Positions 4,430 to 64,000 of a DNA stretch of 64,000 bases are shown here, in pieces. The stretch is from Eledone cirrhosa (Eukaryota). Below the pieces are notes generated by a model that did no database searches, was not told where the DNA came from, and worked only from the letters and a program-made list of their open reading frames with translations. Where the stretch lies: NCBI GenBank assembly GCA_964016885.1, contig OZ024741.1, forward strand, positions 57,536,001 through 57,600,000, given 5' to 3'. Both the position numbers and the translations under genes were made by a program. Positions within the stretch are counted from its first letter, which is position 1, and each line of letters begins with the position of its first letter.

Positions 4430-6722
4430 GCCAATCTATCCCTCATGGGCAGTAACAAAAACCACAACCATCTCCAAACAGCTCACTTTGACTGGAATAT
4501 AGCAGACAAACTGTTACTGCATCGAGTTGCAACGTCCAAACTGGCTTGAGTTCTACGACTCTGGAGATGTCAACACTGTACTCCAGAACATCCTGAGCTC
4601 AATATGGACAGCATGTCCAGCATCGGTGCCACGTAAGCAGAAAAAACATCCCAAAAGTGCAATTTGGGAGACTGCAGCAGTCCGTCTTGCCAGAAAAGAA
4701 TGTTGTAATGCTGAACGTGAGTACAAACTGCATAAATCAGATATCAATAGGAAGAGGCGAAATAAATCATCCAACCATCTCAAACAGGTGACAAAAAAGG
4801 CAGTGCTTCAATTTGAGCAGCGCCTAGCAACCAACCCTAACAGTAAGGTGTTCTGGAAGTATGTTCACTCAAAGCAGAGGTCTCACTCTCCAGTTGGTCC
4901 TCTTCGCAATCCCCACACAAGCCAGGTTACTGACGACCCAAAGGAATGCGCAGAGCTCATTGCTGAATGCTATGCAGGCATTTTCACTATTGAAGACCAG
5001 AGTGTACCATCTCCACCACCTATGACACCGGACTCTATTACAACCATGGAATTTACACCTGCAATGCTGCGGCGTCACCTTAAAAATAAACGCAGCCATG
5101 CCTCTCCTGGTCTTGATGGTGTTACGTACCTGCTTCTTAAACGTGGTGGGTACTTCCTTCTGCACCAGCTATCACGCTTCTTCCAATTCTGTCTGAACAA
5201 CGGTGCTACTCCAGAACAGTGGAAAACTGCCAGTGTCATTCCTCTGTTCAAAAAGGGTGACCGCACATCACCTGTGAACTATCGTCCAGTCAGTCTTACT
5301 AGTTGCATCGCCAAATTGATGGAATCCTGTGTCAGAAAAACACTTTGGAACTTCTGGAACTCTCACAGTCTTATCCGGCCCTTGCAATTTGGATTTCTCC
5401 CTAACTCCAGATGCTGTGATCAACTTATAGAGTTTCTTGAGGACATCACCCGGATCACTGATGGCGGCTCATGGGTGGATGTTGTTTACCTTGACTTTGC
5501 TAAAGCTTTCAATTCTGTGCCACACAAAAGGCTTATGGCAAAACTCTCTGCAATTGGTGTGAAGGATGATCTTTTTAACTGGTTGAAGTCCTTCATTCTC
5601 AGTCGAAGAGAGGTAGTCATGGTTCTAGGACAGCATTCCTCACCATATGAGATGTCATCTGGTGTAACACAGGGATCTGTTCTTGGCCCCCTTTTGTTTG
5701 TGGCATATATTAATGACATAGATGCCAACTTAAAGAATGCCACAGTACTGAAATATGCAGATGACATCAAGCTGTATCTTGAGATAAAAAGGACCGATCC
5801 TGAACACTATAGATCTTGCCTGCAATCTGACCTGGAGACAATGCAACAATGGATCACAGACTGGCAACTCAAGCTGGCTGTGGACAAGTGCACCACCATG
5901 CATTTTGGGAGTAAAAATCCAGCATCCACATACTCTCTCCACAACACTAATATCAAGAAGTCTTCTTGTGAATGTGACCTGGGCATTACGGTCAGCAGTG
6001 ATTTGCGTTGGACAAAGCATGTCTCTAAAATTGTCAACAAGGCCGAGGGTGTCTTAGCATCACTCAGCAAGACCTTTGTGAGCTGATCTCCAGCCATCTA
6101 TTTAAAGCTGTACATAGCTGTGGTGCGGCCACACTTAGAATTTGCATCACCAGTCTGGAACCCCTATCTTGCTCAGAATATTGACCGCCTGGAAACTGTT
6201 CAGAGACGTGCAACCAAGCGAATACCCTCCATCAGGCATCTACCATACTCTGAACGCCTTGCTTCCCTGGGCATGGATACATTGAAGCTCCGACGTCTGG
6301 CAACTGACTTGGTAAACACCCACAAAATTATTAACCATCTTGCCAACAACAACCCTGAGTACCTTTTTGATTTCCATGTGTCTAACACACGTGGGCATGC
6401 CCACAAAGTCAGAAAACAGCACAGTTCCCATGACTTTCGGAAACATTTTTTCACGCTCACAGTTGTGAAGCATGGAACAAACTACCTGCATCAGTTATTA
6501 GCTGTCGAAACACTGCATCCTTTAAAACCTCCATGCTTCCTGAGATTCGCCAACACTACACCTAATATTCCCCCTCCATACACATACACACATGTATATC
6601 ATGACTCATACACTATTCACTTCCCTGACATTTGTATATTATTCTATGTACTATACATGCACCTTTGATGAGTTGTAGTGCACCTGAGCACTTTACACAA
6701 TAATTTCATTATTATTATTATT
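4430..6722 (+). mobile_element. CR1-clade LINE, 5'-truncated (ORF2 RT with one premature stop) and (ATT)n tail
   Basis: ORFs 4527-6086 and 6120-6668 contain SPGLDG, NYRPVSLTS, QFGF, YLDFAKAFNSVPH, GVTQGSVLGPLLF, YADDIKL, VRPHLEFASPVWNP and TRGH; the element ends in cattattattattatt. Confidence 0.93.
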
Positions 6723-7880: not shown

Positions 7881-8375
7881 TAATTCTTAATTGACGTTTA
7901 GCTTATATTTTATAGGACTCATGGCCTAGTAGTTAGAATGTTAGACACATGGCCTAGTGGTTGGGGTGTTGGACTCCAAATCATAAAGGTCAAGGGTTGA
8001 TATGACCCAGGTATTTATTGAGCTAACCAAAACACAAGGAAACTGATGAATTTTCAATACATATACTCATCCCTTTACAAGTTCAATATCATCAACAACT
8101 TAATCAATAATAGACTGGGCATGGTTGTGTTGTTAAGGAGTTCACTTTGTAATCATGAGGTCTTGAGTTCAATTCCACTGCGTGCTATTTTAGGCAAGTG
8201 TCTTGTGTCAACCCAGACAATGAAATTGGATAGACAGAAACTGTGTGGAAGCCTGTCAGGTGGACTGCACCAGTAATTTGAAGATGTGGCCTTGTTACAC
8301 AGTGACACACTGGTATTGCCTAAGAATTATGTTCAGGGTGCACATGTCTATGGAATACTCAACCACTTAAACAAT

Positions 8376-8563
8376 AATTGTTTCTACTTTTGGCACAAGG
8401 CCAGCAATTATTCCAGTGCATTACTGGTACTTTATTTTATCGTCCCATACGGATGAAAGGCAAAGTTAACCTCGGTGGGATTTGAACTCAGATCGTAAAG
8501 GACCATAACTCTGTACTGCAAAGCAGGCGTCCGATCCTTTACTGATACTGCCAATCCACCACT
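8376..8563 (-). mobile_element. SINE family B copy
   Basis: Reverse complement of the family consensus seen at 36582-36770 (B-box gttcaaatccc, gactttgcctttcatcc, aaataaagtaccagt). Confidence 0.8.
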
Positions 8564-14186: not shown

Positions 14187-14699
14187 TAATTCAATCTGAA
14201 TTAAGAGGTTGTGTGCTTGAGACTTTTATAAATTAGTCAGTCCTTTCCAGATAGATGAGGTGGATGATTACTTCCAACATGTGAAAGTTAAATGTTTTTA
14301 GGAACATGTTCCTGAAGAGAGTCATCAATCTGAGCATTAAAGATTGGATGAATTGTTTAGCGAAGGTCACCACAAGAAAACATTTAAGACTCTGAGGTAT
14401 AGCATTTTTATGGACATTTGAGGCTTTTTGGCAACTGGGTCTCGGACAGTTCACTCACAACGGAGTTTGTTATAATCTTATTATATCTATATCGAATTAA
14501 ATTAGTGGTTGGCCTGCAGTGGTGTTTACCAAAGTAAATAACTCTGTGACCAACTCACTAAAACTTTCTGATTTCAAATACTGTCAAGGTCAACTTTGCT
14601 TTTCATTCTTCCAAAGTTGATAAAATAAAGTACCAGTGAAGTACAGGGGTTGGTATAATCGATTTCCTCTTCATCCCCAAATTGTGACTAAATTAGATA

Positions 14700-15340
14700 T
14701 TATTGGCAGTATCGCTAGAGGGTCTGACACCATGCTTTGCAGCAAGGAGTTACTGCCCTTTATAGTCAGATCAAATCCTGCCGAGGTTAACTTTGCGTTT
14801 CTTCCTTACGTGGTTGATAAAATAAAGCATCAGTAATACACTGGGATAATTGCTGGCCTTGTGCCAAATGTAGAAACAATTATTAGTATCACAAACGTAA
14901 TTCCTCATATCTTTAGTATAATTGTTTCTACTTTAGGCACAAGGCCAGCAATTACCCAGTGCATTACTGGTACTTTATTTTATCGACCCCGTAAGGATGA
15001 AAGGCAAAGTCAACCTCGGCGGGATTTGAACTCAGATCGTAAAGGGACGTAACTATGCTGGAAAGCATGGAGTCCGACCCTCTACCGATACTGCCAATCC
15101 ACCGCATGGAATACTTTGAGGGCAGCAGATTGACAGTAATGGTAGAACATTGGATAACATGCTTTGTGGCATATAGTTATGGCCCTTTACATTCTGAGTT
15201 CAAATCCTCCCAAGATTAGCTTTGCCTTTTATCCTTATAGGACCAGTAAAATAAAGTACCAGTATTGCACTGGTGTCGATTTAATCGACTTTCTCCTCCC
15301 CCCAAAATTGTTGGTCTTGTGCATAAATCAGAAACCAGTA
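14700..15340. mobile_element. Cluster of three SINE family B copies (+, -, +)
   Basis: Repeated gttcaaatcc...ctttgcctttcatcc...aaataaagtaccagt motif in alternating orientation. Confidence 0.8.
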
Positions 15341-17400: not shown

Positions 17401-17890
17401 CCTTGAAACAAGAGAGTAGACTGATCTGTCCTTAACCACCAGGATCCCAAGTGTTCGAGTCACAAAACCAAACAGCTGATTCCAGACTGTTGGTATTAAG
17501 CGCATGGTTGATAGCTGACATTAACACTTCAGCTTCAAGGTCCTGCCTGAGGTGAGAGATCACTATCAAGATTTTGCTTTTGTTGAGTTGGGTCAGGCCC
17601 CTGTGTCTTCTTGTGGTGATAAGATGGCAAAGAGCACAGTAGTGCCACCAATACAGAGATTCCGACACATATCTGGTAAGTTTGATGCAAGGAAGGTGGA
17701 ATAAATTGTCGTGGCTGGAAATATTTCTTCTTTGCCTATTGCATGTGGTTATGATTGACTCCCTGCAATGTGAAGAGCTGAGGAGGAGAGGAAATCTGAA
17801 AAAAACCTGGACAATATCAGAGGTGAGGTGAGTGATGAGGTTTGAAAAACAAAAAAAATGTGTGTGTATATATATATATATATATATTAA

Positions 17891-18300
17891 TATTGGTGTG
17901 CTCTGAAATAGCGATGTATACATGAATACATGTATAGTATATTTGGCAATATACTGTATGTTTAATTAATAACATTTAGAAGACCATTCGTTATCACTTT
18001 TAAAGTAGTGACTATGTCACTTACTTATTTTTGGCAAAGGTAGGGAGAGAGGCTGACAGGCTGTTTCTCCCTGATTGGCGTTTATCAAATCCAGCTTTTA
18101 TAATTTTCGACAAAGGCAGGGGAGTGCATCGTTTTGATAAATGCCAAACAGTGAGAAACAAACTGTCAGCCTTTCTCCCTACCTTTGCTGAAAATAAGTA
18201 AGTGACATAGTCACTACTTTAAAACTGATAGCGAATGGTCTTCTAAATGTTTTTAATTAAACATACGGTATATTGCTAAATATACTATACATACATTCAT
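17891..18300. mobile_element. Asymmetric fold-back element related to the 310-bp retrozyme unit
   Basis: Arms ~17913-18090 and ~18133-18300 are reverse complements; the left terminus (attgg..tgctctgaaatagcgat...aacattt.gaagacc) matches the array end at 40951; flanked by (TA)n. Confidence 0.8.
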
Positions 18301-18429
18301 ATATATATATATCTGAAATATTCGAGGTCCGTGGGTAATCGGCTGGCTGGACAGGATGGTAAATAGAGCAGTCACAAGGCGTAGGTAAATATCTAGGTTC
18401 GAAATACTATGTATGCGTAAAAAATATAG

Positions 18430-19236: not shown

Positions 19237-19557
19237 TTTCTGTTGTTGATTTTTTTTTCGTTGCCTTAATGTACTAAAAGATCTTGTTTGTAGCTGGTAG
19301 ATCTTTGGCAATATATTCTATCTCCAATCTTTCTAGTTTTTTAATGATCAGCTGTCATGGCTTACTAGCTCTATACGGACATTTAAATTGATTAAATAAT
19401 TAAATAAATCAGGGTAGCCCTAAAAAGCACGACTATTGACTAATTTAATAGTTGAAGGGAAATAACTCATAAAGTATGCTTACTGAAGATAAGTGCTGTC
19501 CCTTATATACTTGGACGCGGATGGCTACTTATTTTGTTGCTATAAACACTATTTATA

Positions 19558-19720
19558 TAATTGTTTCTACTTTAGGCACAAGGCCAGCAATTATCTCAGT
19601 GCATTACTGGTACTTTATTTTATCGACCCCGTAAGGATGAAAGGCAAAGTTAACCTCGGCGGGATTTGAACTCAGAATGGCAAGGGTCGTAACTCTATGC
19701 GTCAAAGCATGGCGTCCGAT
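19558..19720 (-). mobile_element. SINE family B copy
   Basis: Matches the family B consensus in reverse orientation. Confidence 0.8.
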
Positions 19721-20825: not shown

Positions 20826-22982
20826 GGCTACTGATGAAACCTGTGGCTGGAGCAGAGCTCCAACCAGACAGAGAGTGACCTGGTGGTGGAACAGCAGTGT
20901 AGATAAGGCTATTAGAGACAAAAGACTAGCATGGAAGGCTTGGAATAAGGGTGGGAGTAGGGAAGAATATACAGCCACTAAGAGAGAAGCTAGACGTCAG
21001 GTGTACTTAGCACGCAGGGAGGCAGAGAGTAGGAGGTTTGCCAATGTTCTGCGACGGGAAGATCAGAGGCGTGCGGTGTTCCACATTGCAAGGCAGTGTG
21101 TCAATGCAAATCAGGATGTTGTTGGTGATAAATGTGTCCGGGATGATGCCGGTGTACTTAGTGTCACGAATGACCAGAAAAAGGAGGCCTGGAAATGTCA
21201 TTATGAGAGACTGATGAATGTGGAGAACGAATGGGAGAGAGAGAAATTACCCTTGGTAGATCCGACAGAGGGACCAGCTATTGAGATTGACGAATATAGG
21301 GTCCAAGAGGCGATTAGGGAAATGAAAAATGGTAAGGCGGCCGGACCATCGGGAATAGTTGCTGAGATGCTGAAGGCATCAGGGGACGTAGGCACTAAAC
21401 TGGTTGCACGCATAATCAATCAGGCTATATATGGTGGTGTCATACCCAAAGACTGGTGCAGCAGTATTCTCATAAATTGCTACAAAGGTAAAGGGGATGC
21501 TTTGGAGAGGAGCAATTATAGGGGTATAAAACTGATAGATCAGGTTATGAAAGTGGCAGAAAGGATTTTAGCACAACTAATTAGAGAAAGGGTCAAACTA
21601 GATGAGATGCAGTTTGGTTTTGTGCCTGGGAAGAGTACAACAGATGCCCTCTTCTTGGTGAGACAAATGCAAGAGAGGTTCTTAGAGAAGAATAAGCCAC
21701 TATACTTGGCCTTTGTTGACCTAGAGAAGGCCTTTGATAGGGTACCCCGATCTGTCATCTGGTGGTCCCTAAGGAAGCTGGGTGTTGAGGAATGGCTTGT
21801 AAGGACAGTGCAAACTTTGTACAGAGGTACTCTCAGTAAAGTCAGGGTAGGAATGGAGTTTAGTGAGGAATTCCAGATACAAGTAGGAGTACATCAGGGT
21901 TCGGTCCTCAGCCCGCTCTTGTTCATTATAGTCCTCCAAGCCATAACAGAGGAGTTTAAGACTGGCTGTCCATGGGAACTTCTCTATGCTGACGATCTGG
22001 CTCTTATGGCAGAATCAGTAGAGGAGCTAGAGAATAAATTCCGGCTATGGAAACAGCAGTTGGAAGCAAGAGGACTGAGAGTAAATCTAGCTAAGACAAA
22101 AGTGTTGATGAGTAGAAAAGAGGACAAAACCCTGATTCCGTCAGGGAAATGGCCATGTTCGATATGCAGAAAAGGAACTGGCATAAATTCTATAAAATGC
22201 ACACAATGTAGGTCCTGGGTACACAAGAGATGTAGCGGGATAGCAGGCAAACTAACAGGTAGGGAGAAATATGTATGCAGTAGATGTACAGGGAAATTAG
22301 ACAGTAGAAGTCGCACTGATAGACACATTTTTCAAATGCGAGAGGGCGCTATAGAAGTGGTGGATAGCTTCCGGTACCTAGGAGATCAGATTAGCATGGG
22401 AGGAGGGTGTTCCGAGGCCATAGTATCTAGAATAAGGACGGGTTGGAAGAAGTTTAGGGAGCTGCTTCCTCTGTTGACGAAGAAGGGTTTCTCCCTGCGT
22501 ACGAAAGGCCGGTTGTATGATGCCTGTGTGAGGAGCGCGATGCTGCATGGTAGTGAGACATGGGCAGCTACCGCAGAAGATATGCGACGGCTGGAGAGAA
22601 ATGAGGCAAGCATGCTCCGTTGGATGTGCAGTGTAAATGTGCGTGAACGACCCAGCATAAATGTGTTGAGAGAGAAACTGTGTCTGAGAGGGATAGAATG
22701 TAGTGTACGGGAGAGGAGACTGAGGTGGTATGGACATGTGATGCGCATGGAGGATGACCGATGGGTGAAGAAGTGCCAGGAAATGCCAGTTGAAGGAAGA
22801 CGTGGTAGAGGTAGACCACGAAAAACATGGGCGGAGGTGGTGAGAACAGACCTCAGATCATTGAAGCTCACGGTGGAGATGACGAGGGACCGTGACGAGT
22901 GGAGAGATGCTGTGCTGAATAAGACCCGTCCCACCCTTGCAAGCAGGGAAAAGCGGACGTAAAATGATGATGATGATGATGA

Positions 22983-30000: not shown

Positions 30001-32510
<2,510 letters not shown>

Positions 32511-32668
32511 TATATATAAACAATCAATTATATGCTTTGTTGATGAGTATTCAACAGAGTTATGTTCATAACAGATATGATGCACTCTACAGAAAAATTT
32601 ATCTGGAGTATTATAATATTAATAATAGTAATAAATGGAAAAGTGATATTTTCCATTTATTACTATTG

Positions 32669-36229: not shown

Positions 36230-36350
36230 CGATGACAAATAAAACAAAACAAAGTAATGTTTTATCCAGTGTATTTTAACATATTTCAGGGCTATTATCT
36301 GTTAAAATACACTGGATAAAACGTTACATTGTTTTGTTTTATTTGTCATC
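36230..36350. repeat. Fold-back inverted repeat, about 50-bp arms
   Basis: gatgacaaataaaacaaaac...tttatccagtgtattttaac pairs with gttaaaatacactggataaa...gttttgttttatttgtcatc. Confidence 0.9.
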
Positions 36351-36364
36351 ATGTGCCCTTCGTT

Positions 36365-36993
36365 AGGGCGGTGGATTGGCAGTATCGGTAGACCATGCTT
36401 TGCAGCATAGAGTTACGGTCGTTTACGGTCTGAGTTCAAATCCCGCCGAGGTTAACTTTGCTTTTCATCCTTACGGGGTCGATAAAATAAAGCACCAGTA
36501 ACGTACTGGGATCGATTTAATTGACTTTCCCCTCCCCAAAATTACTGGCCTTGTGCCTATACTAGAAATCATTATTTGCCCTGCGGTGGATTGGCAGTAT
36601 CAGTAGAGGGTCGGACGCCATGCTTTCCAGCATAGTTACGTCCCTTTACGATCTGAGTTCAAATCCCGCCGAGGTTGACTTTGCCTTTCATCCTTACGGG
36701 GTCGATAAAATAAAGTACCAGTAATGCACTGGGTAATTGCTGGCCTTGTGCCTAAAGTAGAAATAATTATTTGCCCTTCGTATTTTTCTACCGCATTGTA
36801 ATGGCTTTTTGAAATTTGATCGGTCTTTTATTACAAATATAATTGTTTCTACAAGGCCAGCAATTACCCAGTACATTACTGGTACTTTATTTTATCGACC
36901 CCGTAAGGATGAAAGGCAAAATTAACCTCGGCGGGATTTGAACCCAGATTATAAAGGGATGTAACTCTATGCTTCAAAGCATGATGTCCGACT
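36365..36993. mobile_element. Three SINE family B copies (+, +, -)
   Basis: gcggtggattggcagtatc...gagttcaaatcccgccgaggtt.actttgc..ttcatccttacggggtcgataaaataaag repeated. Confidence 0.85.
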
Positions 36994-38310: not shown

Positions 38311-39534
38311 GTTCCCCACCCAGCGAAACTAGAAACAATGCTTTACTTATTAATAAAACATAAAACATACAATCGTTACTGGTGGTACAACTTGGAATAA
38401 AAAAAAAACGTACGAATAACTTTTTTCTTTATTTATAGTAGAAAATATATACAGGGGCCGTGGAAGCATTTCTGAATTTGTAGGGGCAACAAATTTGGTC
38501 AATTTAGTTGTAGTGATTAGTTTAGCTCTTTGCACTCTAAAATGGTCATAAAATGCAATTTGAGTCCAAGCAGGTCATATTACATTTACAGCTTTAACAG
38601 CGGCGAAGATTCAAAACCGAATCTGAGCTGTCTCGCCTCTGGAACAAGCCGTCGTTAGTTGTTTACGCCCGGCAGACCAACCCCTTGGGAGATGCTAAAC
38701 ACAGGTCAGATGTTGTTTACGCCTGGCAGAAAAGAGGTCAGATATATCCATCCTTCTAAGTTGTTTACGCCTCGGCAGAAAAAGTGAGACTACAGACAAG
38801 ACAAGTCGCATTTACACGCTCTCGTCACGAAAAACCAGTCTGCCCACTAATTTCTCACACGCCATTCCCGCCGGGCTGAGTGATTACTACTACTGCTAAA
38901 GCAAGAAAGTATACTAATACGCACACACGCACACATAGTAAGTTCACACTGTTTTCATTTCACACGCACCATTTCTGTTTGTCACATTGTATCTTTCAGA
39001 TACAATACAAATTATATTATAATCGTATTCTGTGACACTTGTATTTACGTGGCTCGAAGAGCCACTAAATTATTGTACGAATATTTCATGTTATAGATTT
39101 TATCATTCAATATTCAAATTGAATATTGTTATAATAAAATAAACATTGTAACAACACAATCCTGGTATTATTCTTTGCATTGAAACCATCATACCAACAA
39201 TTCCATCTATCCACTTATTCGTTACAACTGGATTATCCGTTACACAGCTTTCAATAATTATAAAGAGATTATAGCAAACTGACCTATGAAATCTGTCTCT
39301 GAATAACATACTAGCAATTGGCAAATAGTGATATGTGGAGAAAAAGTTATGGCATGACAATAAAATTTACTATGAAGGGTAATATAATATATTACAGTGT
39401 TATTATCAAATATCAACCAAGATATAAACAACTTTGGTATGCAATAAAAACATAAAATGTACATAAATTGTAGCGCATATACAAATAGATGTGTGTTTTG
39501 GTAGTTTGGAGAAAAATATAATTATTATTATTAT

Positions 39535-39745
39535 CATCATCATCGTTTAACATCTATCTTCCATGCTAGCATGGGTTTAGACGGGAATTGTCTCACTTGA
39601 GGCAAGATTGGTTGTCTCGCTTGTATAGGACTGTCTGGCAGGTTTTCTATGGCTGGATGCCCTTCCTAACACCAACCACGTTTACAGTGTGGACTGGGCA
39701 GTTTTTACCGTGTTACCTACACGGCCACATTACAGCGCGGACTGT
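39535..39745 (-). mobile_element. SINE 3' part with RTE-like (ATG)n tail; related copy at 47650-47890 (+)
   Basis: Shared ggttggtgttaggaagggcatcca...cttgcctcaagtg...catgc..gc.tggaa and (atg)n tail. Confidence 0.65.
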
Positions 39746-39899
39746 GTGTTTTTTTTGTCACCTACACAACTTCATTTATTTTGGACTGGATGTTGTGGTA
39801 CCGACATAACTTTACAGAGAGAGGGTGGTGTTGGTGGGAGTAGGGGTAGTGGAATGGGGGTGTATATTTGGTTAAGAGGTGCCTACTGACTGTAGGTTT

Positions 39900-40914
39900 C
39901 GCTTTGTACATAGGCAAGGCGGGTCTTCTGTATTACTGCGTAGTGCCAAAGATCTCGATCCAGTGACATTATCTTGGAGAGGTGTAAGTGTGTAAGGTTG
40001 GAATTTATCAAGTCGTCCCAGGTTTTTCTGGATCTGCCTACTCCGTAGCTTCCATCAATTTTGATCGCCCTGCACTTTTTTTATACAGCTGTCGTCTTTC
40101 ATGCACATCATGTGACCATACCAACGTAGTCTTCTCTCGAGTAAACAGCATCTGATCCCTCTTATTCCTAATTTCTCACTTAGTTCATTTATGCTTTGCC
40201 GTTCACGTATATTACTATTACACATCTAACGTAGCATGCAAGCTTCGTTCCTCTCCAGTCTGCGTAGATCCTCTGCACGCAATGCCCATGTCTCACTCCC
40301 ATGTAACATTGCTGTTCGTATGCAGACATCATACAGTCTGCCTTTCATTTTTAGCGAGAAACCTTTAACGGCCAACAGCGGTATAAGCTCTCTGAACTTT
40401 TTCCATCCCGTTCTGAATCTGGTTACTGTACTTTCAGAGCACCCTCCACCACTGCTGATTTTGTCACCCAGGTAACGGAAGGTGTCCACTATTTCTATAG
40501 AACCATCTGGGTAATGGAAGGAGCTAGTATCCTGTGGGCACTTGCTACTTATTGCACCTGAGCACCGGCCACATATAAAATCTATGTTCTTAGTTAGCTT
40601 ACCTGTGATCCCACTACATCTTTTATGCACCCATACTTTGCATTTGGGACATAAAATGGAGTTCTGCCTACTCCTTTCCTACACACTGAGCATGGCAATT
40701 TCCCAGAGGGGACTAGTGCTCTATTTTCCTTCCGACATACTAGAACTTTGGTCTTAGACAAGTTAACTTTAAGGCCTTTTCATTCTAGGCCATGCTTCCA
40801 TGTTTGGAATTTCTCCTCTAGTTCATTCATCAATTTAGCTATGAGCGTTAGATCATCTGCATATAGAAGTTCCCATGGGCAGCCGGTCTTGAACTCCTCT
40901 GTTATAGCCTGAAG

Positions 40915-40918
<4 letters not shown>
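39900..40918 (-). mobile_element. RTE LINE 3' fragment
   Basis: LQAITEEFKTGCPWELLYADDL, HKRCSGITGKL and GWKKFRELIPLL on the minus strand. Confidence 0.92.
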
Positions 40919-40950
<32 letters not shown>

Positions 40951-40956
<6 letters not shown>

Positions 40957-43583
40957 ATAAATGCTCTGAAATAGCGATATATATGTGAATATAGACATAG
41001 AATATTCGAAAATATTCTGTATGTTTATAATAAACATTTTGAAGACCTAATCGCTATAGAATAGAATACGTCACGTATTACAATTAGATTCTCGATAAAA
41101 GCAAGGGAAGTAATCTACGCGTTTCATTCTTGTTAGAAATCATCAGGACTACATATCCAGTGCTTTTATCGAGAATGACACAGCTAGAGACTTATAGAAT
41201 ACTTAGCTGTGTACAGGAACTGGTTTGAAAGAGCGGTTGCCGGTCCGGCAGAAATTAGAAATTGGAATAAATGCTCTGAAATAGCGATATATATGTGAAT
41301 ATAGACATAGAATATTCGAAAATATTCTGTATGTTTATAATAAACATTTTGAAGACCTAATCGCTATAGAATAGAATACGTCACGTATTACAATTAGATT
41401 CTCGATAAAAGCAAGGGAAGTAATCTACGCGTTTCATTCTTGTTAGAAATCATCAGGACTACATATCCAGTGCTTTTATCGAGAATGACACAGCTAGAGA
41501 CTTATAGAATACTTAGCTGTGTACAGGAACTGTGTCATTCTCGATAAAAGCACTGGATATGTAGTCCTGATGATTTCTAACAAGAATGAAACGCGTAGAT
41601 TACTTCCCTTGCTTTTATCGAGAATCTAATTGTAATACGTGACGTATTCTATTCTATAGCGATTAGGTCTTCAAAATGTTTATTATAAACATACAGAATA
41701 TTTTCGAATATTCTATGTCTATATTCACATATATATCGCTATTTCAGAGCATTTATTCCAATTTCTAATTTCTGCCGGACCGGCAACCGCTCTTTCAAAC
41801 CAGTTCCTGTACACAGCTAAGTATTCTATAAGTCTCTAGCTGTGTCATTCTCGATAAAAGCACTGGATATGTAGTCCTGATGATTTCTAACAAGAATGAA
41901 ACGCGTAGATTACTTCCCTTGCTTTTATCGAGAATCTAATTGTAATACGTGACGTATTCTATTCTATAGCGATTAGGTCTTCAAAATGTTTATTATAAAC
42001 ATACAGAATATTTTCGAATATTCTATGTCTATATTCACATATATATCGCTATTTCAGAGCATTTATTCCAATTTCTAATTTCTGCCGGACCGGCAACCGC
42101 TCTTTCAAACCAGTTCCTGTACACAGCTAAGTATTCTATAAGTCTCTAGCTGTGTCATTCTCGATAAAAGCACTGGATATGTAGTCCTGATGATTTCTAA
42201 CAAGAATGAAACGCGTAGATTACTTCCCTTGCTTTTATCGAGAATCTAATTGTAATACGTGACGTATTCTATTCTATAGCGATTAGGTCTTCAAAATGTT
42301 TATTATAAACATACAGAATATTTTCGAATATTCTATGTCTATATTCACATATATATCGCTATTTCAGAGCATTTATTCCAATTTCTAATTTCTGCCGGAC
42401 CGGCAACCGCTCTTTCAAACCAGTTCCTGTACACAGCTAAGTATTCTATAAGTCTCTAGCTGTGTCATTCTCGATAAAAGCACTGGATATGTAGTCCTGA
42501 TGATTTCTAACAAGAATGAAACGCGTAGATTACTTCCCTTGCTTTTATCGAGAATCTAATTGTAATACGTGACGTATTCTATTCTATAGCGATTAGGTCT
42601 TCAAAATGTTTATTATAAACATACAGAATATTTTCGAATATTCTATGTCTATATTCACATATATATCGCTATTTCAGAGCATTTATTCCAATTTCTAATT
42701 TCTGCCGGACCGGCAACCGCTCTTTCAAACCAGTTCCTGTACACAGCTAAGTATTCTATAAGTCTCTAGCTGTGTCATTCTCGATAAAAGCACTGGATAT
42801 GTAGTCCTGATGATTTCTAACAAGAATGAAACGCGTAGATTACTTCCCTTGCTTTTATCGAGAATCTAATTGTAATACGTGACGTATTCTATTCTATAGC
42901 GATTAGGTCTTCAAAATGTTTATTATAAACATACAGAATATTTTCGAATATTCTATGTCTATATTCACATATATATCGCTATTTCAGAGCATTTATTCCA
43001 ATTTCTAATTTCTGCCGGACCGGCAACCGCTCTTTCAAACCAGTTCCTGTACACAGCTAAGTATTCTATAAGTCTCTAGCTGTGTCATTCTCGATAAAAG
43101 CACTGGATATGTAGTCCTGATGATTTCTAACAAGAATGAAACGCGTAGATTACTTCCCTTGCTTTTATCGAGAATCTAATTGTAATACGTGACGTATTCT
43201 ATTCTATAGCGATTAGGTCTTCAAAATGTTTATTATAAACATACAGAATATTTTCGAATATTCTATGTCTATATTCACATATATATCGCTATTTCAGAGC
43301 ATTTATTCCAATTTCTAATTTCTGCCGGACCGGCAACCGCTCTTTCAAACCAGTTCCTGTACACAGCTAAGTATTCTATAAGTCTCTAGCTGTGTCATTC
43401 TCGATAAAAGCACTGGATATGTAGTCCTGATGATTTCTAACAAGAATGAAACGCGTAGATTACTTCCCTTGCTTTTATCGAGAATCTAATTGTAATACGT
43501 GACGTATTCTATTCTATAGCGATTAGGTCTTCAAAATGTTTATTATAAACATACAGAATATTTTCGAATATTCTATGTCTATA

Positions 43584-43587
<4 letters not shown>
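40951..43587. repeat. 310-bp tandem array with one hammerhead per unit (non-LTR retrozyme-like): ~1.9 units on minus (40951-41530) and ~6.6 units on plus (41531-43587)
   Basis: tgtgtcattc recurs at 41531, 41841, 42151, 42461, 42771, 43081 and 43391 (period 310); units look identical by eye; flanked by (TA)n. Confidence 0.95.
41561..41603 (+). ncRNA. Minimal type I hammerhead ribozyme (also at 41871, 42181, 42491, 42801, 43111 and 43421 on +; 41110-41152 and 41420-41462 on -)
   Basis: gtagtc-CTGATGA-tttct aaca agaat-GAAA-cgcg-TA-gattac. Stem I gtagtc/gattac, stem II ttct/agaa, palindromic stem III ACGCGT, GUA cleavage after 41597; distal stem I attctcgataaaagca/tgcttttatcgagaat. Confidence 0.9.
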
Positions 43588-43618
<31 letters not shown>

Positions 43619-43622
<4 letters not shown>

Positions 43623-43776
43623 CTTCAGGCTATAACAGAGGAGTTCAAGACCGGCTGCCCATGGGAACTTCTATATGCAGATGATCTAACGCTCATAGCT
43701 AAATTGATGGATGAACTAGAGGAGAAATTCCAAACATGGAAGCATGGCCTAGAATGAAAAGGCCTTAAAGTTAACT
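43619..43776 (+). repeat. Inverted duplicate of RTE fragment 40761-40918
   Basis: Reverse complement with one visible substitution and the same premature stop (GLE*). Confidence 0.92.
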
Positions 43777-43907
43777 ATATATATGAATGAAATGAATATA
43801 TATATATATATGTGTATATATATATAATAATTATATATATATAATAATTATATATATAATAATTATAATAAATATATATATGAATGAAATGAATATATAT
43901 ATATATA

Positions 43908-43952
<45 letters not shown>

Positions 43953-44076
43953 GTAGGAGGTGAGTTTTATTGTAGCACAATAAAGCAATGCAAATATCGG
44001 ATAAATAGCACTCCACAGTTTATAGGACTGGAGTATAAATAATATAAGATCAAAAGATGGTTAAAAGAGTTCCAAG

Positions 44077-44147
44077 TATTTTATTATGCGCATTTCAAAA
44101 ACAAATATCATCATGGGATGATATTTGCGTTCTCATCAGATAAAATA
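44077..44147 (-). ncRNA. Hammerhead ribozyme in the inverted pLTR
   Basis: Reverse complement of 46312-46382. Confidence 0.85.
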
Positions 44148-44583
44148 GGGAAACATGATATGAAGCTTAAAAAACACTTGTGAGCAGTGAAGTTTTAAAT
44201 CAACATATGAAAAATAAAGTAAGATGGATATATGAGATTGGGAAAAAAAAGGATGGGGGAGGGAAGGTAAGGAAGAGGGAGAAAGAGAATAAAGGATGAC
44301 GGGGGAGGAGTATAAGAAGGAAGGATGAGAGAGGAGGAGAAATGAGTGATAGAGAGAGAGAAATAGCCTTTACAACTGAGAAAACATTGACTCACAGAGA
44401 GAAATTAAAAAACCGTTGGAAGATAATAGATAATTTAAAAAGATTTTGAAATTAAAAGTTAATGAGGTTTATGGGTGTTGATGTTTATGATTAAAGAAAA
44501 AAAGAAATTAAGAATAGTATTAATTTAAGGTTTATATAATGAAGGGTTTAATAATATGTGCGAAAAAAAGAATTTATTAATAT

Positions 44584-45301
44584 CTCTAACATTATCTCTA
44601 AACACAATAATAAAATATTAAATAATAAATTACATCCATCCAACACTGAGCGTCATAATAATAGCAGTAGTATACCCGACGTCATTGTTAACTCTAGTCT
44701 AGATTCAGTAAATTTAAATACGACGTCAAACGTAACTTCGTTGAATGTTCATAACACCAATCTAAATCATGAAACTATAGTTCCTATCGTAAATAACTTC
44801 TCCAATCCAATTCCTTCTATAAATAATACTAGGTCACTTGTTAATAACTCTGTTAATTTCTCTAATCGTAATTGTAATTGCCCTGTTAGAACTAAATGTC
44901 CTCTTAATAACCAATGTCTTAATAAAAACTTAGTGTATGAATGTAAGGTTATAACTGGTACTAATTCTTTTACCTATTTCGGTTCCACTTCCACTTCCTT
45001 TAAAGCAAGATTTTATAATCACAAATCGTCTTTTAAATACCAACTTAAAAGAACTAACACGGCACTCTCGGAACTCATATGGTCCTTAAAAGACAAAAAT
45101 ATTAACTATAACATCTCTTGGAGGAAGGTTTTTAACGCCTTTCCTTACCAGAATTATTCCCTATCCAGAACATGTAATCTCTGCCTAGCCGAGAAATTTA
45201 CCATTATATCTAATTTTAATTCTATAATAAATAGACGTACGGCTTTATTCTCGCTCTGCTTGCATAAATCCCATATAACTTTCCATAACGTATACAGCTA
45301 A
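44584..45301 (+). pseudogene. Penelope-like GIY-YIG endonuclease C-terminal ORF fragment
   Basis: CNC.....CPL...C, LVY...YFGSTSTSFKARFYNH, TALSELIWSLK and CNLCLAEK...CLH; the first codons of the listed ORF (from 44558) come from the inverted pLTR. Confidence 0.88.
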
Positions 45302-46311
45302 TATCTCAATACATAATTAGTTTAAAATCTTTTTCTCAAAGGCTTTTATATCTATTACAAATATACCCATCTTTCTACCTTATTTCAGTATATTATATTA
45401 TACAATTTACTCATTCTATGTCGTTAGAGGTCCCCTATCTTTCTTCTTTTATCCTTTTTCCTTTCTTTCCTTTTTTTCTTTTTCAATTTCTAATCTTTAA
45501 TCTGTAACTTTTACTTGCCAATTTCTTCTCAATTCATATTATTACTCACTACAGCATTTTTCATTTTTCCATTTTTCCTCATATTATTGGCCATAGAAAC
45601 TATATATTTTTAAATATATAATAATATTACCATTAGAAAATCTTTGTAAACATATATACCTTTTGACGTTAGATATTTTTTCTTCCTTAAATTCTCTTTT
45701 TTCTTCTCTCCTTCCGTGCTCGTTTTAAACCTATTATTTACTTTTACATATTACAATGCATAAAAACAAACTTAAATCCTAACTAATTCCTCTAAGTTCA
45801 TAGTTCATTTCTTCTTCTTCTTCTTTCACATTATATCCTTAATATTGTTAATATTTTTATTTTAATAATACATATTAATAAATTCTTTTTTTCGCACATA
45901 TTATTAAACCCTTCAATATATAAACCTTAAATTAATACTATTCTTAATTTCTTTTTTTCTTTAATCATAAACATCAACATCCATAAACCTCATTAACTTT
46001 TAATTTCAAAATCTTTTAAAATTATCTATTATCTTCCAACGATTTTTTAATTTCTCTCTGTGAGTCAATGTTTTCTCAGCTGTAAAGGCTATTTCTCTCT
46101 CTATCACTCATTTCTCCTCCTCTCTCATCCTTCCTTCTTATACTCCTCCCCCGTCATCCTTTATTCTCTTTCTCCCTCTTGCTCTTCCTTACCTTCCCTC
46201 CCCCATCCTTTTTTTTCCCAATCTCATATATCCATCTTACTTTATTTTTCATATGTTGATTTAAAACTTCACTGCTCACAAGTGTTTTTTAAGCTTCATA
46301 TCATGTTTCCC

Positions 46312-46382
46312 TATTTTATCTGATGAGAACGCAAATATCATCCCATGATGATATTTGTTTTTGAAATGCGCATAATAAAATA
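46312..46382 (+). ncRNA. Type I hammerhead ribozyme in the Penelope pLTR
   Basis: tattttat-CTGATGA-gaac gcaaatatcatc ccat gatgatatttgt tttt-GAAA-tgcgca-TA-ataaaata; 8-bp stem I and palindromic stem III. Confidence 0.88.
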
Positions 46383-46419
46383 CTTGGAACTCTTTTAACC
46401 ATCTTTTGATCTTATATTA

Positions 46420-46459
<40 letters not shown>

Positions 46460-57948: not shown

Positions 57949-58485
57949 GTGATTGTTCTGTAACTTGAAATAGCAAATATTTGTAAACACCTCAAATATA
58001 TAAATCATATATTGATGGTGTCTAAGATTTCTCCCACTCAGAAATTTGATGTGAGATTTAGTGTCTTTCCCTTTCAAATTGACTTTTTTAAAATTTGAGA
58101 ATGAAGTAATATAGCTTCACAAATTCTTGCCTTGGTTCAAGAAATGGCTCGAAGTCGGCACAGACTTTTGCAACACGAAGCTGTAGATATGACATTACTT
58201 CACAGTTACACATTGTGTTTTATTGTAACTTATACTTGTTCAGAGCCTTAACATAAATAGACCTTTATGTGTAATGAGAAAAGAAGCGACAAAGCTTCTC
58301 TCACTTTTCAATTAGAGCTCTTTGGAAATGTTGCATAACAGTCGGAGCCTTCCTCCCAACATTCAACCATATTGACTGATTCATACTGGTTAAAGTGATG
58401 AAACAGTCTTCATATTTGTTTTCTATTTCAATTTATTCAGTGTTGATTTCTTCAATTTCACTATCGATTGTCAAATGAGAAATGA

Positions 58486-59450
58486 AAATAACTTGCTCTG
58501 GGCTGTTATGAGATAAATTTCACTGAACTATTATATAATATATTTCACTGAGCTGTTATAAAATATCTTTCACTGAGCTGTTATAAAATAACTTACTCTG
58601 AGTTGTTATAAAATAACTTACACTGAGCTGTTATAAAATAACTTACTCTGAGTTATTATAAATATCTTACTCTGAGCTGTTATAAAATAACTTACTCTGA
58701 GTTGTTATAAAATAACTTACTCTGAGTTGTTATAAAATATCTTACTCTGAACTGTTATAAAATATCTTACTCTGAGATGTTATAAAATATCTTACTCTGA
58801 GCTGTTATAAAATAACTTACACTGAGCTGTTATAAAATATCTTATTCTGAACTGTTATAAAATAACTTACTCTGTGCTGTTATAAAATAACTTATACTGA
58901 GCTCTTATAAAATAACTTACACTGAGCTCTTATAAAATAACTTACTCTGAGTTATTATAAAATATTTTACTCTGAGCTGTTATAAAATAACTTACTCTGA
59001 GTTGTTATAAAAATCTTATTCTGATCTGTTATAAAATAACTTACTCTGAGCTGTTATAAAATAACTTACTCTGAGTTGTTATAAAATAACTTACTCTGAG
59101 TTGTTATAAAATATCTTTTACTGAGCTGTTATAAAATATCTTACTCTGAGTTGTTATAAAATATCTTACTCTGAGTTGTTATAAAATAACTTACTCTGAG
59201 CTGTTATAAAATAACTTACACTGAGCTGTTATAAAAGATCTTATTCTGAACTGTTATAATATAATTTACTCTGAGTTGTTATAAAATATCTTACTCTGAG
59301 TTGTTATAAAATAACTTACTCTGAGTTGTTATAAAATAACTTACTCTGAGCTGTTATAAAATAACTTACTCTGAGCTGTTATAAAATAACTTACTCTGAG
59401 CTGTTATAAAATATCTTTCAATAAGCTGTAATGAAATTACTTTCTATAAA
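58486..59450. repeat. 25-bp minisatellite (ctgagctgttataaaataacttact)n, roughly 35-38 units
   Basis: Period 25, e.g. ttactctgag at 59341, 59366 and 59391. Confidence 0.95.
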
Positions 59451-62989: not shown

Positions 62990-64000
62990 GGAGGTGAGTT
63001 TTATTGTAGTACAATAAAGCAATGCAGATATCGGATAAGAAGCACTCTACAGTTTGTAGGACTGGAGTATACATAATATATAATATCAAAAGATGGTTAA
63101 AAGAGTTCCATTTGATATTGCCAACTACTATTCTTCTATTTCGCCTTCACTTCTCAACAATGCTCTATCTTTTGCATTTAAATATTCTGACATCACCACA
63201 GATGAACTTCACATCATTCTCACCGCACGTAAAACCATCCTAGAGTTCAACAATGAATATTGGACTAGAGCTGATACCTCTAACAACTTCGACATCACAA
63301 TGGGAGCATCCGATTCATCCCAATTGACAGATTTAATTAGTATCTTTATTTTGAACTCTTTGAGTCGGAAAATTCCTCAACTTCGCGGTGGAATTTATCG
63401 TGACAATGGACTCTTTACTATCTTAAATTGCAACATAGTTAACCTTAATATTATTAAGAACAATATACGTAATCTCTTTAACCAACATAACTTAAAAATT
63501 GAATTTGATAACAGCATCAAACTAGCTAATTTCTTGGATGTATCTCTTAATCTTGACACTGGCCTATATTACCCTTACCATAAAAACAATGAGAACCTAA
63601 ATTATGTTAATTTTAAATCTAACCACCCCACTAATATTAAGAATGCTATAGTTAGTAATATTGGAAAAAGAATATCTAACCTATCTTCTAATAAAAACAT
63701 CTTTGATGCTAACGCCAATTACTATAATAACGCGCTTTCTAAAGCCGGCTATCCTGATAAAATCAAATATAGTAAAGAAACAAATTCTAGAAGATCTTAC
63801 AGTAGAATAATTAATCATGATCATTCCAATAACTTTAATAAAAGACCTAGATACAAAAACATAATCTGGTATAATGCTCCTTTCTCCATCTCTATTAATA
63901 ATAATATTCCTAAATTATTCTTTAGTGCCTTAAATAAATGCTTCCTGCATCTCATATCTATAGTAAAATATTTAACAAACACACTATACAATTTTCCTAT
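62987..64000 (+). mobile_element. Second Penelope-like element: inverted pLTR end (62987-63110) joined to RT coding sequence running off the window
   Basis: 62987-63110 matches 43953-44074. Hand translation from 63111 gives FDIANYYSSI...FDITMGASDSSQLTDLISIFIL...GIYRDNGL...NFLDVSLNL...SNHP...RISNLSS; the catalytic YRDD appears as YRDN. Confidence 0.88.

Follow-up and report, generated by a model that had tools for sequence, protein, structure and literature searches.

For the non-LTR retrozymes of metazoans, multimeric cDNA synthesised on a circular template has been proposed as the route of integration (Cervera and de la Pena 2020, PMC7229834; review PMC7761336). Insertions of EN+ Penelope-like elements (PLEs) are described as carrying an inverted, 5'-truncated copy and a tail of 30-40 bp (PMC8557442, PMC3846280), and Li, Clavereau, Pollet 2026 (bioRxiv 10.64898/2026.07.22.740005) regard retrozymes as non-autonomous derivatives of PLEs. 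In vitro, the Poseidon protein of anole used two RT start sites that bound the tail, and both strands were cut and extended (PMC11167929). A parallel comes from snap-back synthesis-dependent MMEJ, in which inverted primer repeats at a break lead to an inverted copy and in which chains of short templated pieces arise (PMC9303309). These accounts follow the consulted parts of each source; in the literature surveyed, the integration route of animal retrozymes has been proposed, not demonstrated. In L1 twin priming, attributed to Ostertag and Kazazian (2001), two target ends reportedly prime and their cDNAs join by microhomology, the two pieces being said to cover non-overlapping parts of one RNA.

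Here we describe a locus in a 64,000-nt window of Eledone cirrhosa DNA, the whole stretch analysed, in which a back-to-back array of a 310-nt repeat is bordered on both sides by the same 157 bp of host DNA in opposite orientations. Back-to-back insertions of this repeat number about a thousand, and the present one belongs to them.

Anatomy of the locus

In the assembly sequence, the elements follow one another as an RTE-like fragment (- strand), (TA)n, 1.9 units (-), 6.6 units (+), (TA)n and an inverted piece of the same RTE-like fragment (+); this order, with its outer bounds (40761..43776) and the inversion point, had been proposed by an earlier examination of the letters (hereafter the sequence-only reading) and held on re-analysis. 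The host DNA left of the insertion is a 5'-truncated LINE fragment (39515..40917, -), recognised by an RT-like reading frame and by matches to other copies, of which the closest sampled (L110) is 89% identical over 1.4 kb. We presume that it belongs to the RTE group, on the strength of the sequence-only reading and of known motifs; a Pfam search with a 45-aa piece of it gave no match. Its rightmost part (40761..40917, -) is the original of the duplicated 157-bp segment and is followed by the left TA run (40918..40950, or 40920-40952 as a repeat call), which measures 33 nt up to the start of the tail. The tailed arm (40951..41532, -) comprises 582 nt or 1.9 units, with its outer end at unit position 233 and its inner end at 272, and the untailed arm (41530..43587, +) comprises 2058 nt or 6.6 units, with its outer end at unit position 198, the start of the unit's own short AT tract. 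At the head-to-head junction (41530..41532) the arms overlap by 3 nt, the CTG microhomology that had been claimed for the inversion point. The tail at the left end, which the right end lacks, was likewise recognised from the outset, but it measures 35 nt (unit positions 199-233) and not about 33 nt. All 310-nt units of the array are identical, with no difference across about 2640 nt.

The right TA run (43588..43619, or 43587-43619 as a repeat call) equals the left one in length (33 and 33 by one measure) and leads into the inverted 157-bp copy of the left flank (43620..43776, +), which occurs nowhere else in the genome. A scrambled, TA-rich filler of 176 nt (43777..43952, +) then separates the flank copy from a distinct PLE insertion. 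Original and copy are identical at 156 of 157 positions, with a lone substitution (40827 versus 43710) and a TGA stop in both. The sequence-only reading was thus right about the common stop and the one base; its count omits one further difference, which lies where the segment meets the TA run and leaves the copy with the purer TA. Two patterns spanning the RTE segment matched at these two places alone in the 3.0-Gb genome, and the segment is therefore a local copy rather than a chance resemblance.

Other repeats in the window include a 25-bp minisatellite of 38 copies that are 88% alike (58485-59442), LINE-like frames at 20827-22959, 31092-32511 and 4503-6083 (open stretches of 711, 255 and 527 aa, respectively), a PLE RT fragment at the window's end (63084-63998), and nested inverted clusters of a repeat for which the label tRNA- or SINE-like is a guess (14567-15311, 36231-36992, 8373-8560 and 19552-19720).

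The 310-nt unit and its predicted hammerhead

By size, composition and tandem layout the 310-nt repeat fits a non-LTR retrozyme with a predicted self-cutting motif. That class is described as having tandem, low-GC units of 150-450 nt without ORF, LTR or PBS; here, 2-kb windows over the array have 32-37% GC, and a frame scan over the array revealed no open stretch of at least 200 aa. A candidate type I hammerhead lies in every unit, nine in total, and in the first plus unit occupies 41552..41617 (+) with the predicted cut after 41597. Against Rfam HH9, a 101-nt piece scored 19.2 bits with E 0.0083, where the gathering score is 52, and in the HH9 alignment the core, stem I, stem II and a minimal palindromic stem III line up in all nine copies. 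Folding was far more stable than in shuffled sequences, with z -6.1 for the 101-nt hammerhead region and z -3.2 for the whole unit. At all 101 loci compared, the major unit has the core pattern unbroken, which is not taken as proof of selection, since the haplotypes differ at few sites. Rfam microRNA matches at the junction merely mirror the hairpin.

Genome counts for the unit and its ends were made with exact sequence patterns. The 34-nt core pattern matched 4213 times, and 1024 tailed and 1236 untailed ends were found, as expected of a dispersed, multi-copy and recently mobile non-LTR retrozyme (about 1000-1200 ends per type).

Relatives of the unit were also seen. An older one at 17867-18308 of the window, about 80% similar to the unit's end region, forms a small head-to-head insertion between TA runs, and a sibling repeat family whose hammerhead core is similar occurs in the flanks of L100, L123 and L163, likewise as tiny head-to-head insertions in TA runs. 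A 340-nt contig from a read run labelled as another organism contains 300 nt of the unit without a difference; 340 equals 310 + 30, as a collapsed tandem or a circle would give, and a related species, transfer and a mixed sample are alike possible as its source.

Two-armed arrays are the family norm

A survey of the family covered the initial 273 Mb of contig C1, where loci were picked for a match to the core or to one of the two exact ends. This yielded 158 blocks, of which 13, cut by the stretch or by N, were dropped and 145 kept, the window locus included. These whole blocks comprise 127 head-to-head arrays and 18 in a single orientation; because the 127 include a locus sampled twice and a pair that arose by tandem duplication, about 125 of them are independent. 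One tailed and one untailed end were found at 119 of the 127 head-to-head loci, two untailed ends at four, and four were partly typed. TA runs stand at essentially all ends displayed. The palindromic array is thus the norm of the family. The inverted, 5'-truncated copy with a 30-40 bp tail at one end that is described for PLEs was present at 119/127 loci, with an offset of 35 nt, together with the (TA)n target, and the PLE-type footprint that had been read from this one locus (inverted arms, one-sided tail, TA target) extends family-wide. A search for equivalents of the empty site among the sampled loci returned 5/127 matches, all of them simple repeats or family ends.

Arm lengths, junctions and common units

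The sequence-only reading attributed both the palindrome and the flank copy to fold-back synthesis or template switching that copied target DNA. The flank copy does look like fold-back; the array palindrome does not. Among 118 loci the untailed arm was the longer in 53, and equal arms, as fold-back would leave, were seen at 7; two independent priming events fit better for this reason. Arm lengths were weakly related (Spearman 0.23), both arms exceeded one unit at 97 loci, and the inner ends of the tailed arms were spread evenly round the unit, with gaps no larger than chance would leave and with 1/118 within 10 nt of the predicted ribozyme cut and 9/118 near the second start site. Each of the 80 loci whose junction was measured has its own different junction; inserted bases were present in 30, and 30 of the 50 clean junctions had an overlap of at least 2 nt, compared with 18% in simulation. 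Side observations were made at three arrays: the unit type switches within one arm only of L063 (a mosaic array), about 270 nt of unrelated GC-rich sequence are inserted at the arm junction of L036 (3599-3870), and a short repeat of unit sequence is stuttered at the arm junction of L137 (5916-6038).

The two arms of a locus are closely matched in sequence. An identical unit was common to both arms at 90/100 loci, against 986/9900 cross-locus pairs, and 21 of the 22 locus-private sequences with units in both arms occur in both. On the simplest reading of the array, one and the same RNA served both target ends, which primed cDNA on it at two fixed sites. Of 54 sporadic variants, 48 were not common in register; the other six, at L069, L086 and L154, are in-register variants that occur in same-rank outer units of both arms and not further in, which requires a multimeric template read from one unit by both primers, or copying between the arms. 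Variants fixed across all units would be explained by a monomeric circle, which is the likely template in most cases; rolling reverse transcription of a circle is plausible, and these three loci instead suggest multimeric templates.

The insertion can be pictured as follows. A Penelope-type enzyme would cut a TA repeat and extend both DNA ends on one retrozyme RNA, which would place the element in (TA)n with the ends observed at unit positions 233 and 198. Each target end would prime cDNA at one of these two sites, run over several units and stop at random, and the two cDNA ends would be joined, here at the CTG seen at the junction; at the untailed site, the TA end could pair with the unit's short AT tract. 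Two-ended priming agrees with what anole Poseidon does in vitro, where two start sites bound the tail and both strands are cut and extended. With a Penelope-type enzyme, two-ended TA priming and a subsequent TA fold-back that copied 157 bp as its components, we assign this whole explanation of the locus a probability of roughly 0.55.

A neighbouring Penelope-like insertion

Beyond the filler lies an older, head-to-head PLE insertion (43953..46427) with a one-sided tail of about 80 nt, separate from the retrozyme; it contains an endonuclease-side ORF fragment (44555-45301, +) and hammerheads at 46320 (+) and 44139 (-). Its arms differ by 5 substitutions in 558 nt. Its family is very abundant, with 59,828 first-look candidates and 925 exact tailed ends genome-wide, and relatives have open frames of 713-760 codons. 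Judged by eye against the consulted part of the Hydra-clade description (PMC8557442), the family carries the motifs of that clade, namely C-terminal EN, CxCX5C linker, DKT, CxxC, CxH, HHR and (TA)n; Pfam and PDB searches with its protein gave no match. The retrozyme unit was compared with 12 loci of this family, without a match and without a pLTR homologue among them. We do not put the neighbouring element forward as the mobiliser, because its sequence does not match the retrozyme unit; the acting enzyme is likely to be of Penelope type.

Rate and nature of the flank copy

Inverted flank duplications had been suggested as something to look for at other array loci, and there they are mostly absent: a single clear case was found among the 126 other insertions (L102, about 40 identical nt). 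At L079 and L133 diverged family ends face each other (88% at L079), and at L108 10 nt are shared between the flanks. At 483 TA runs without a retrozyme there were 10 loose matches, of which about 4 (20-55 nt) were counted by eye; a stricter rule gave 5/682, two family-pair cases included, and control cross-pairs gave 4/3000. Because 1/126 equals the background of about 4/483, the copy lies outside the signature of the family, in which a flank duplication does not recur as a target-site duplication. By the strict rule, snap-back copies near array ends were not enriched (1/100 versus 4/582, P 0.55). The flank copy is likely a product of TA-primed fold-back synthesis, that is, a rare local scar and not a target-site duplication. 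Snap-back-like flank copies between two TA runs were also seen just outside retrozyme ends at L041 (left, 14 nt), L129 (left, about 20 nt, with stuttered re-copying too) and L140 (right, about 50 nt).

How the flank might have been copied can be sketched from the layout. While the second strand was being made, or when the 2.6-kb palindrome was replicated later, its top strand would pair with its own left arm, its TA end would anneal to the left TA run, such runs being self-complementary, and synthesis would proceed 157 nt into the RTE-like fragment before switching again onto nearby TA runs, which would produce the filler, and rejoining the right flank. The flank copy begins at the TA run and is without a tail. 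The first 12 nt of the filler are the reverse complement of the array's untailed end, a motif found twice in the genome, both times here; such a 12-nt exit occurs at 31/11005 TA-run ends (0.28%). The filler has matches of 8-9 nt to the RTE-like fragment too. TA runs are of equal length here (33/33) and at L102 (28/26), against 12 of 80 loci overall, which is no general symmetry (8.3 by permutation, P 0.11). The boundary TA is purer on the copy side at both this locus and L102, as expected if the TA primer spanned one mismatch. The original carries T at 40827 where seven of nine other RTE copies carry C, so that the likely derived base is in the original and not in the copy. This substitution is C to T on the would-be template strand and would fit deamination of single-stranded DNA. 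A derived base in the original, beside an array with no variant in about 2640 nt, suggests that time elapsed after copying.

Alternative explanations

The palindrome might be a fold-back chimera or a collapsed repeat, since long palindromes are difficult to assemble; among the listed contigs of four runs on 40300-41260 (short, mostly other repeat copies), none spans the locus, which speaks neither for nor against it. A mirrored read would, however, not give a centre that is asymmetric, ends that are fixed at two biological points and junctions that vary from locus to locus in all 80 measured, and the flank copy is not identical to its original and runs into a genome-unique junction; we give an assembly or read artefact very little credence. 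For the architecture an artefact is unlikely; the locus itself is known from the assembly, and its unit number could be miscounted. If instead the whole 3-kb structure were one DNA fold-back, with one array copied in reverse and the synthesis continuing into the flank, identical arms and mirrored flank would be explained in one step, and the in-register variants of three loci would fit one arm templating the other. Against this, the right arm is 3.5 times as long as the left and has no tail, the untailed arm is longer at 53/118 loci and equal arms occur at 7/118, no clear flank copy exists at 125 of the 126 other insertions, and 48/54 sporadic variants are not common to the arms in register. 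A single fold-back is largely refuted by the arm lengths and the fixed unequal ends, and we consider it improbable. That the right-hand 157 bp came from an independent insertion of the same RTE family has a precedent at L079 and L133, where ends of one family happen to face each other; those at L079 are 88% alike, compared with 156/157 here, and the present piece is internal and not a 3' end. The two diagnostic patterns, which match nowhere else in the genome, rule this candidate out, and we regard its chance as negligible.

More weight attaches to a reading in which the array arose by two-ended priming and the inverted copy is older, made when a broken TA run snapped back, perhaps as the neighbouring PLE inserted, with the retrozyme entering the central TA later. 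Inverted copies at TA runs occur at a background rate (about 4/483, or 5/682 by the stricter rule) that is the same as the 1/126 at retrozyme loci, and short snap-back copies lie just beyond the retrozyme ends at L041, L129 and L140. A lone difference in 157 nt, for which the original holds the derived base, agrees with the age of the neighbouring PLE, whose arm divergence predicts 1.4 differences in 157 nt, and the array is without variant. Such an older scar would, however, leave the filler's 12-nt match to the array end unexplained (0.28% of TA exits) and would require that in each of the two known cases the insertion hit the TA centre exactly; in addition, snap-back copies were seen at 0 of 30 tailed ends from the family of the neighbouring PLE, a comparison of low power. 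We judge the older scar somewhat unlikely. Copying at or after insertion, for which the opening of the filler and the equal TA runs speak, is favoured over it, with odds that are a judgement and not computed, and we lean slightly to that timing. Against it, the background of about 4/483 at TA runs leaves no need for an extra route to the 1/126. A more specific proposal, which we hold tentatively and at less than even odds, is that a single complex primes both cut ends within one unit of one RNA molecule, at two sites separated by 35 nt, which would account for inversions and tails alike, and that the palindrome zips in the outer register during second-strand synthesis and sometimes copies the flank backwards; this locus and L102 would then be scars of that process, and L069, L086 and L154 would record the common template. 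If this were true, PLE machinery would be a direct source of TA-centred inverted duplications.

Comparison with known systems

As far as the consulted parts of the sources describe them, metazoan non-LTR retrozymes resemble the present family in their low GC, a unit of about 300 nt that holds a single type I hammerhead, arrays ranging from dimers to large multimers, and the lack of an ORF; this family, known here from DNA alone, differs in its two head-to-head arms with fixed unequal ends. The terms 'inverted' and 'head-to-head' are absent from the main text of PMC7229834. Li, Clavereau, Pollet 2026 invoke the same class of mobilising partner; in the parts consulted, they argue from co-occurrence and pLTR homology, favour local tandem expansion and describe neither inverted arrays nor tails, whereas our argument comes from insertion anatomy. 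A literature search for inverted or twin-primed retrozyme or PLE insertions, covering main texts, found no description of two-armed retrozyme multimers.

With EN+ PLE insertions, as the consulted parts present them, the family has in common the head-to-head inversion, the tail at one end (35 nt here) and the (TA)n targets; unlike them, the retrozyme is non-coding and both of its arms are multimeric. The consulted part of PMC3846280 explains the inversion by self-priming on the antisense template, whereas our arm data favour two-ended target priming. L1 twin priming is alike in its two primed ends and microhomology join and unlike in that the arms here cover the same sequence, the tailed arm passing the second start site (9/118 end near it). 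The flank copy resembles snap-back MMEJ, as described in the consulted part of its source, in its inverted copy and in a filler of short templated pieces, and departs from it in that the primer here is a long TA run. At 157 nt, the copy is also long for a snap-back MMEJ insert.

With its roughly one thousand young insertions and its two fixed start sites, the family is a ready substrate for in vitro work. To this the locus adds a probable side reaction by which host DNA is duplicated in inverted orientation; such copying is uncommon, has counterparts known from break repair and is unsuitable as a family marker. Inverted PLE ends, the one-sided tail and TA targeting are already published (PMC8557442, PMC3846280), as is a PLE origin of retrozymes, within the parts of those sources consulted; what is added here is a measured rate of flank copying, equal to background, and the in-register variants of the two arms.
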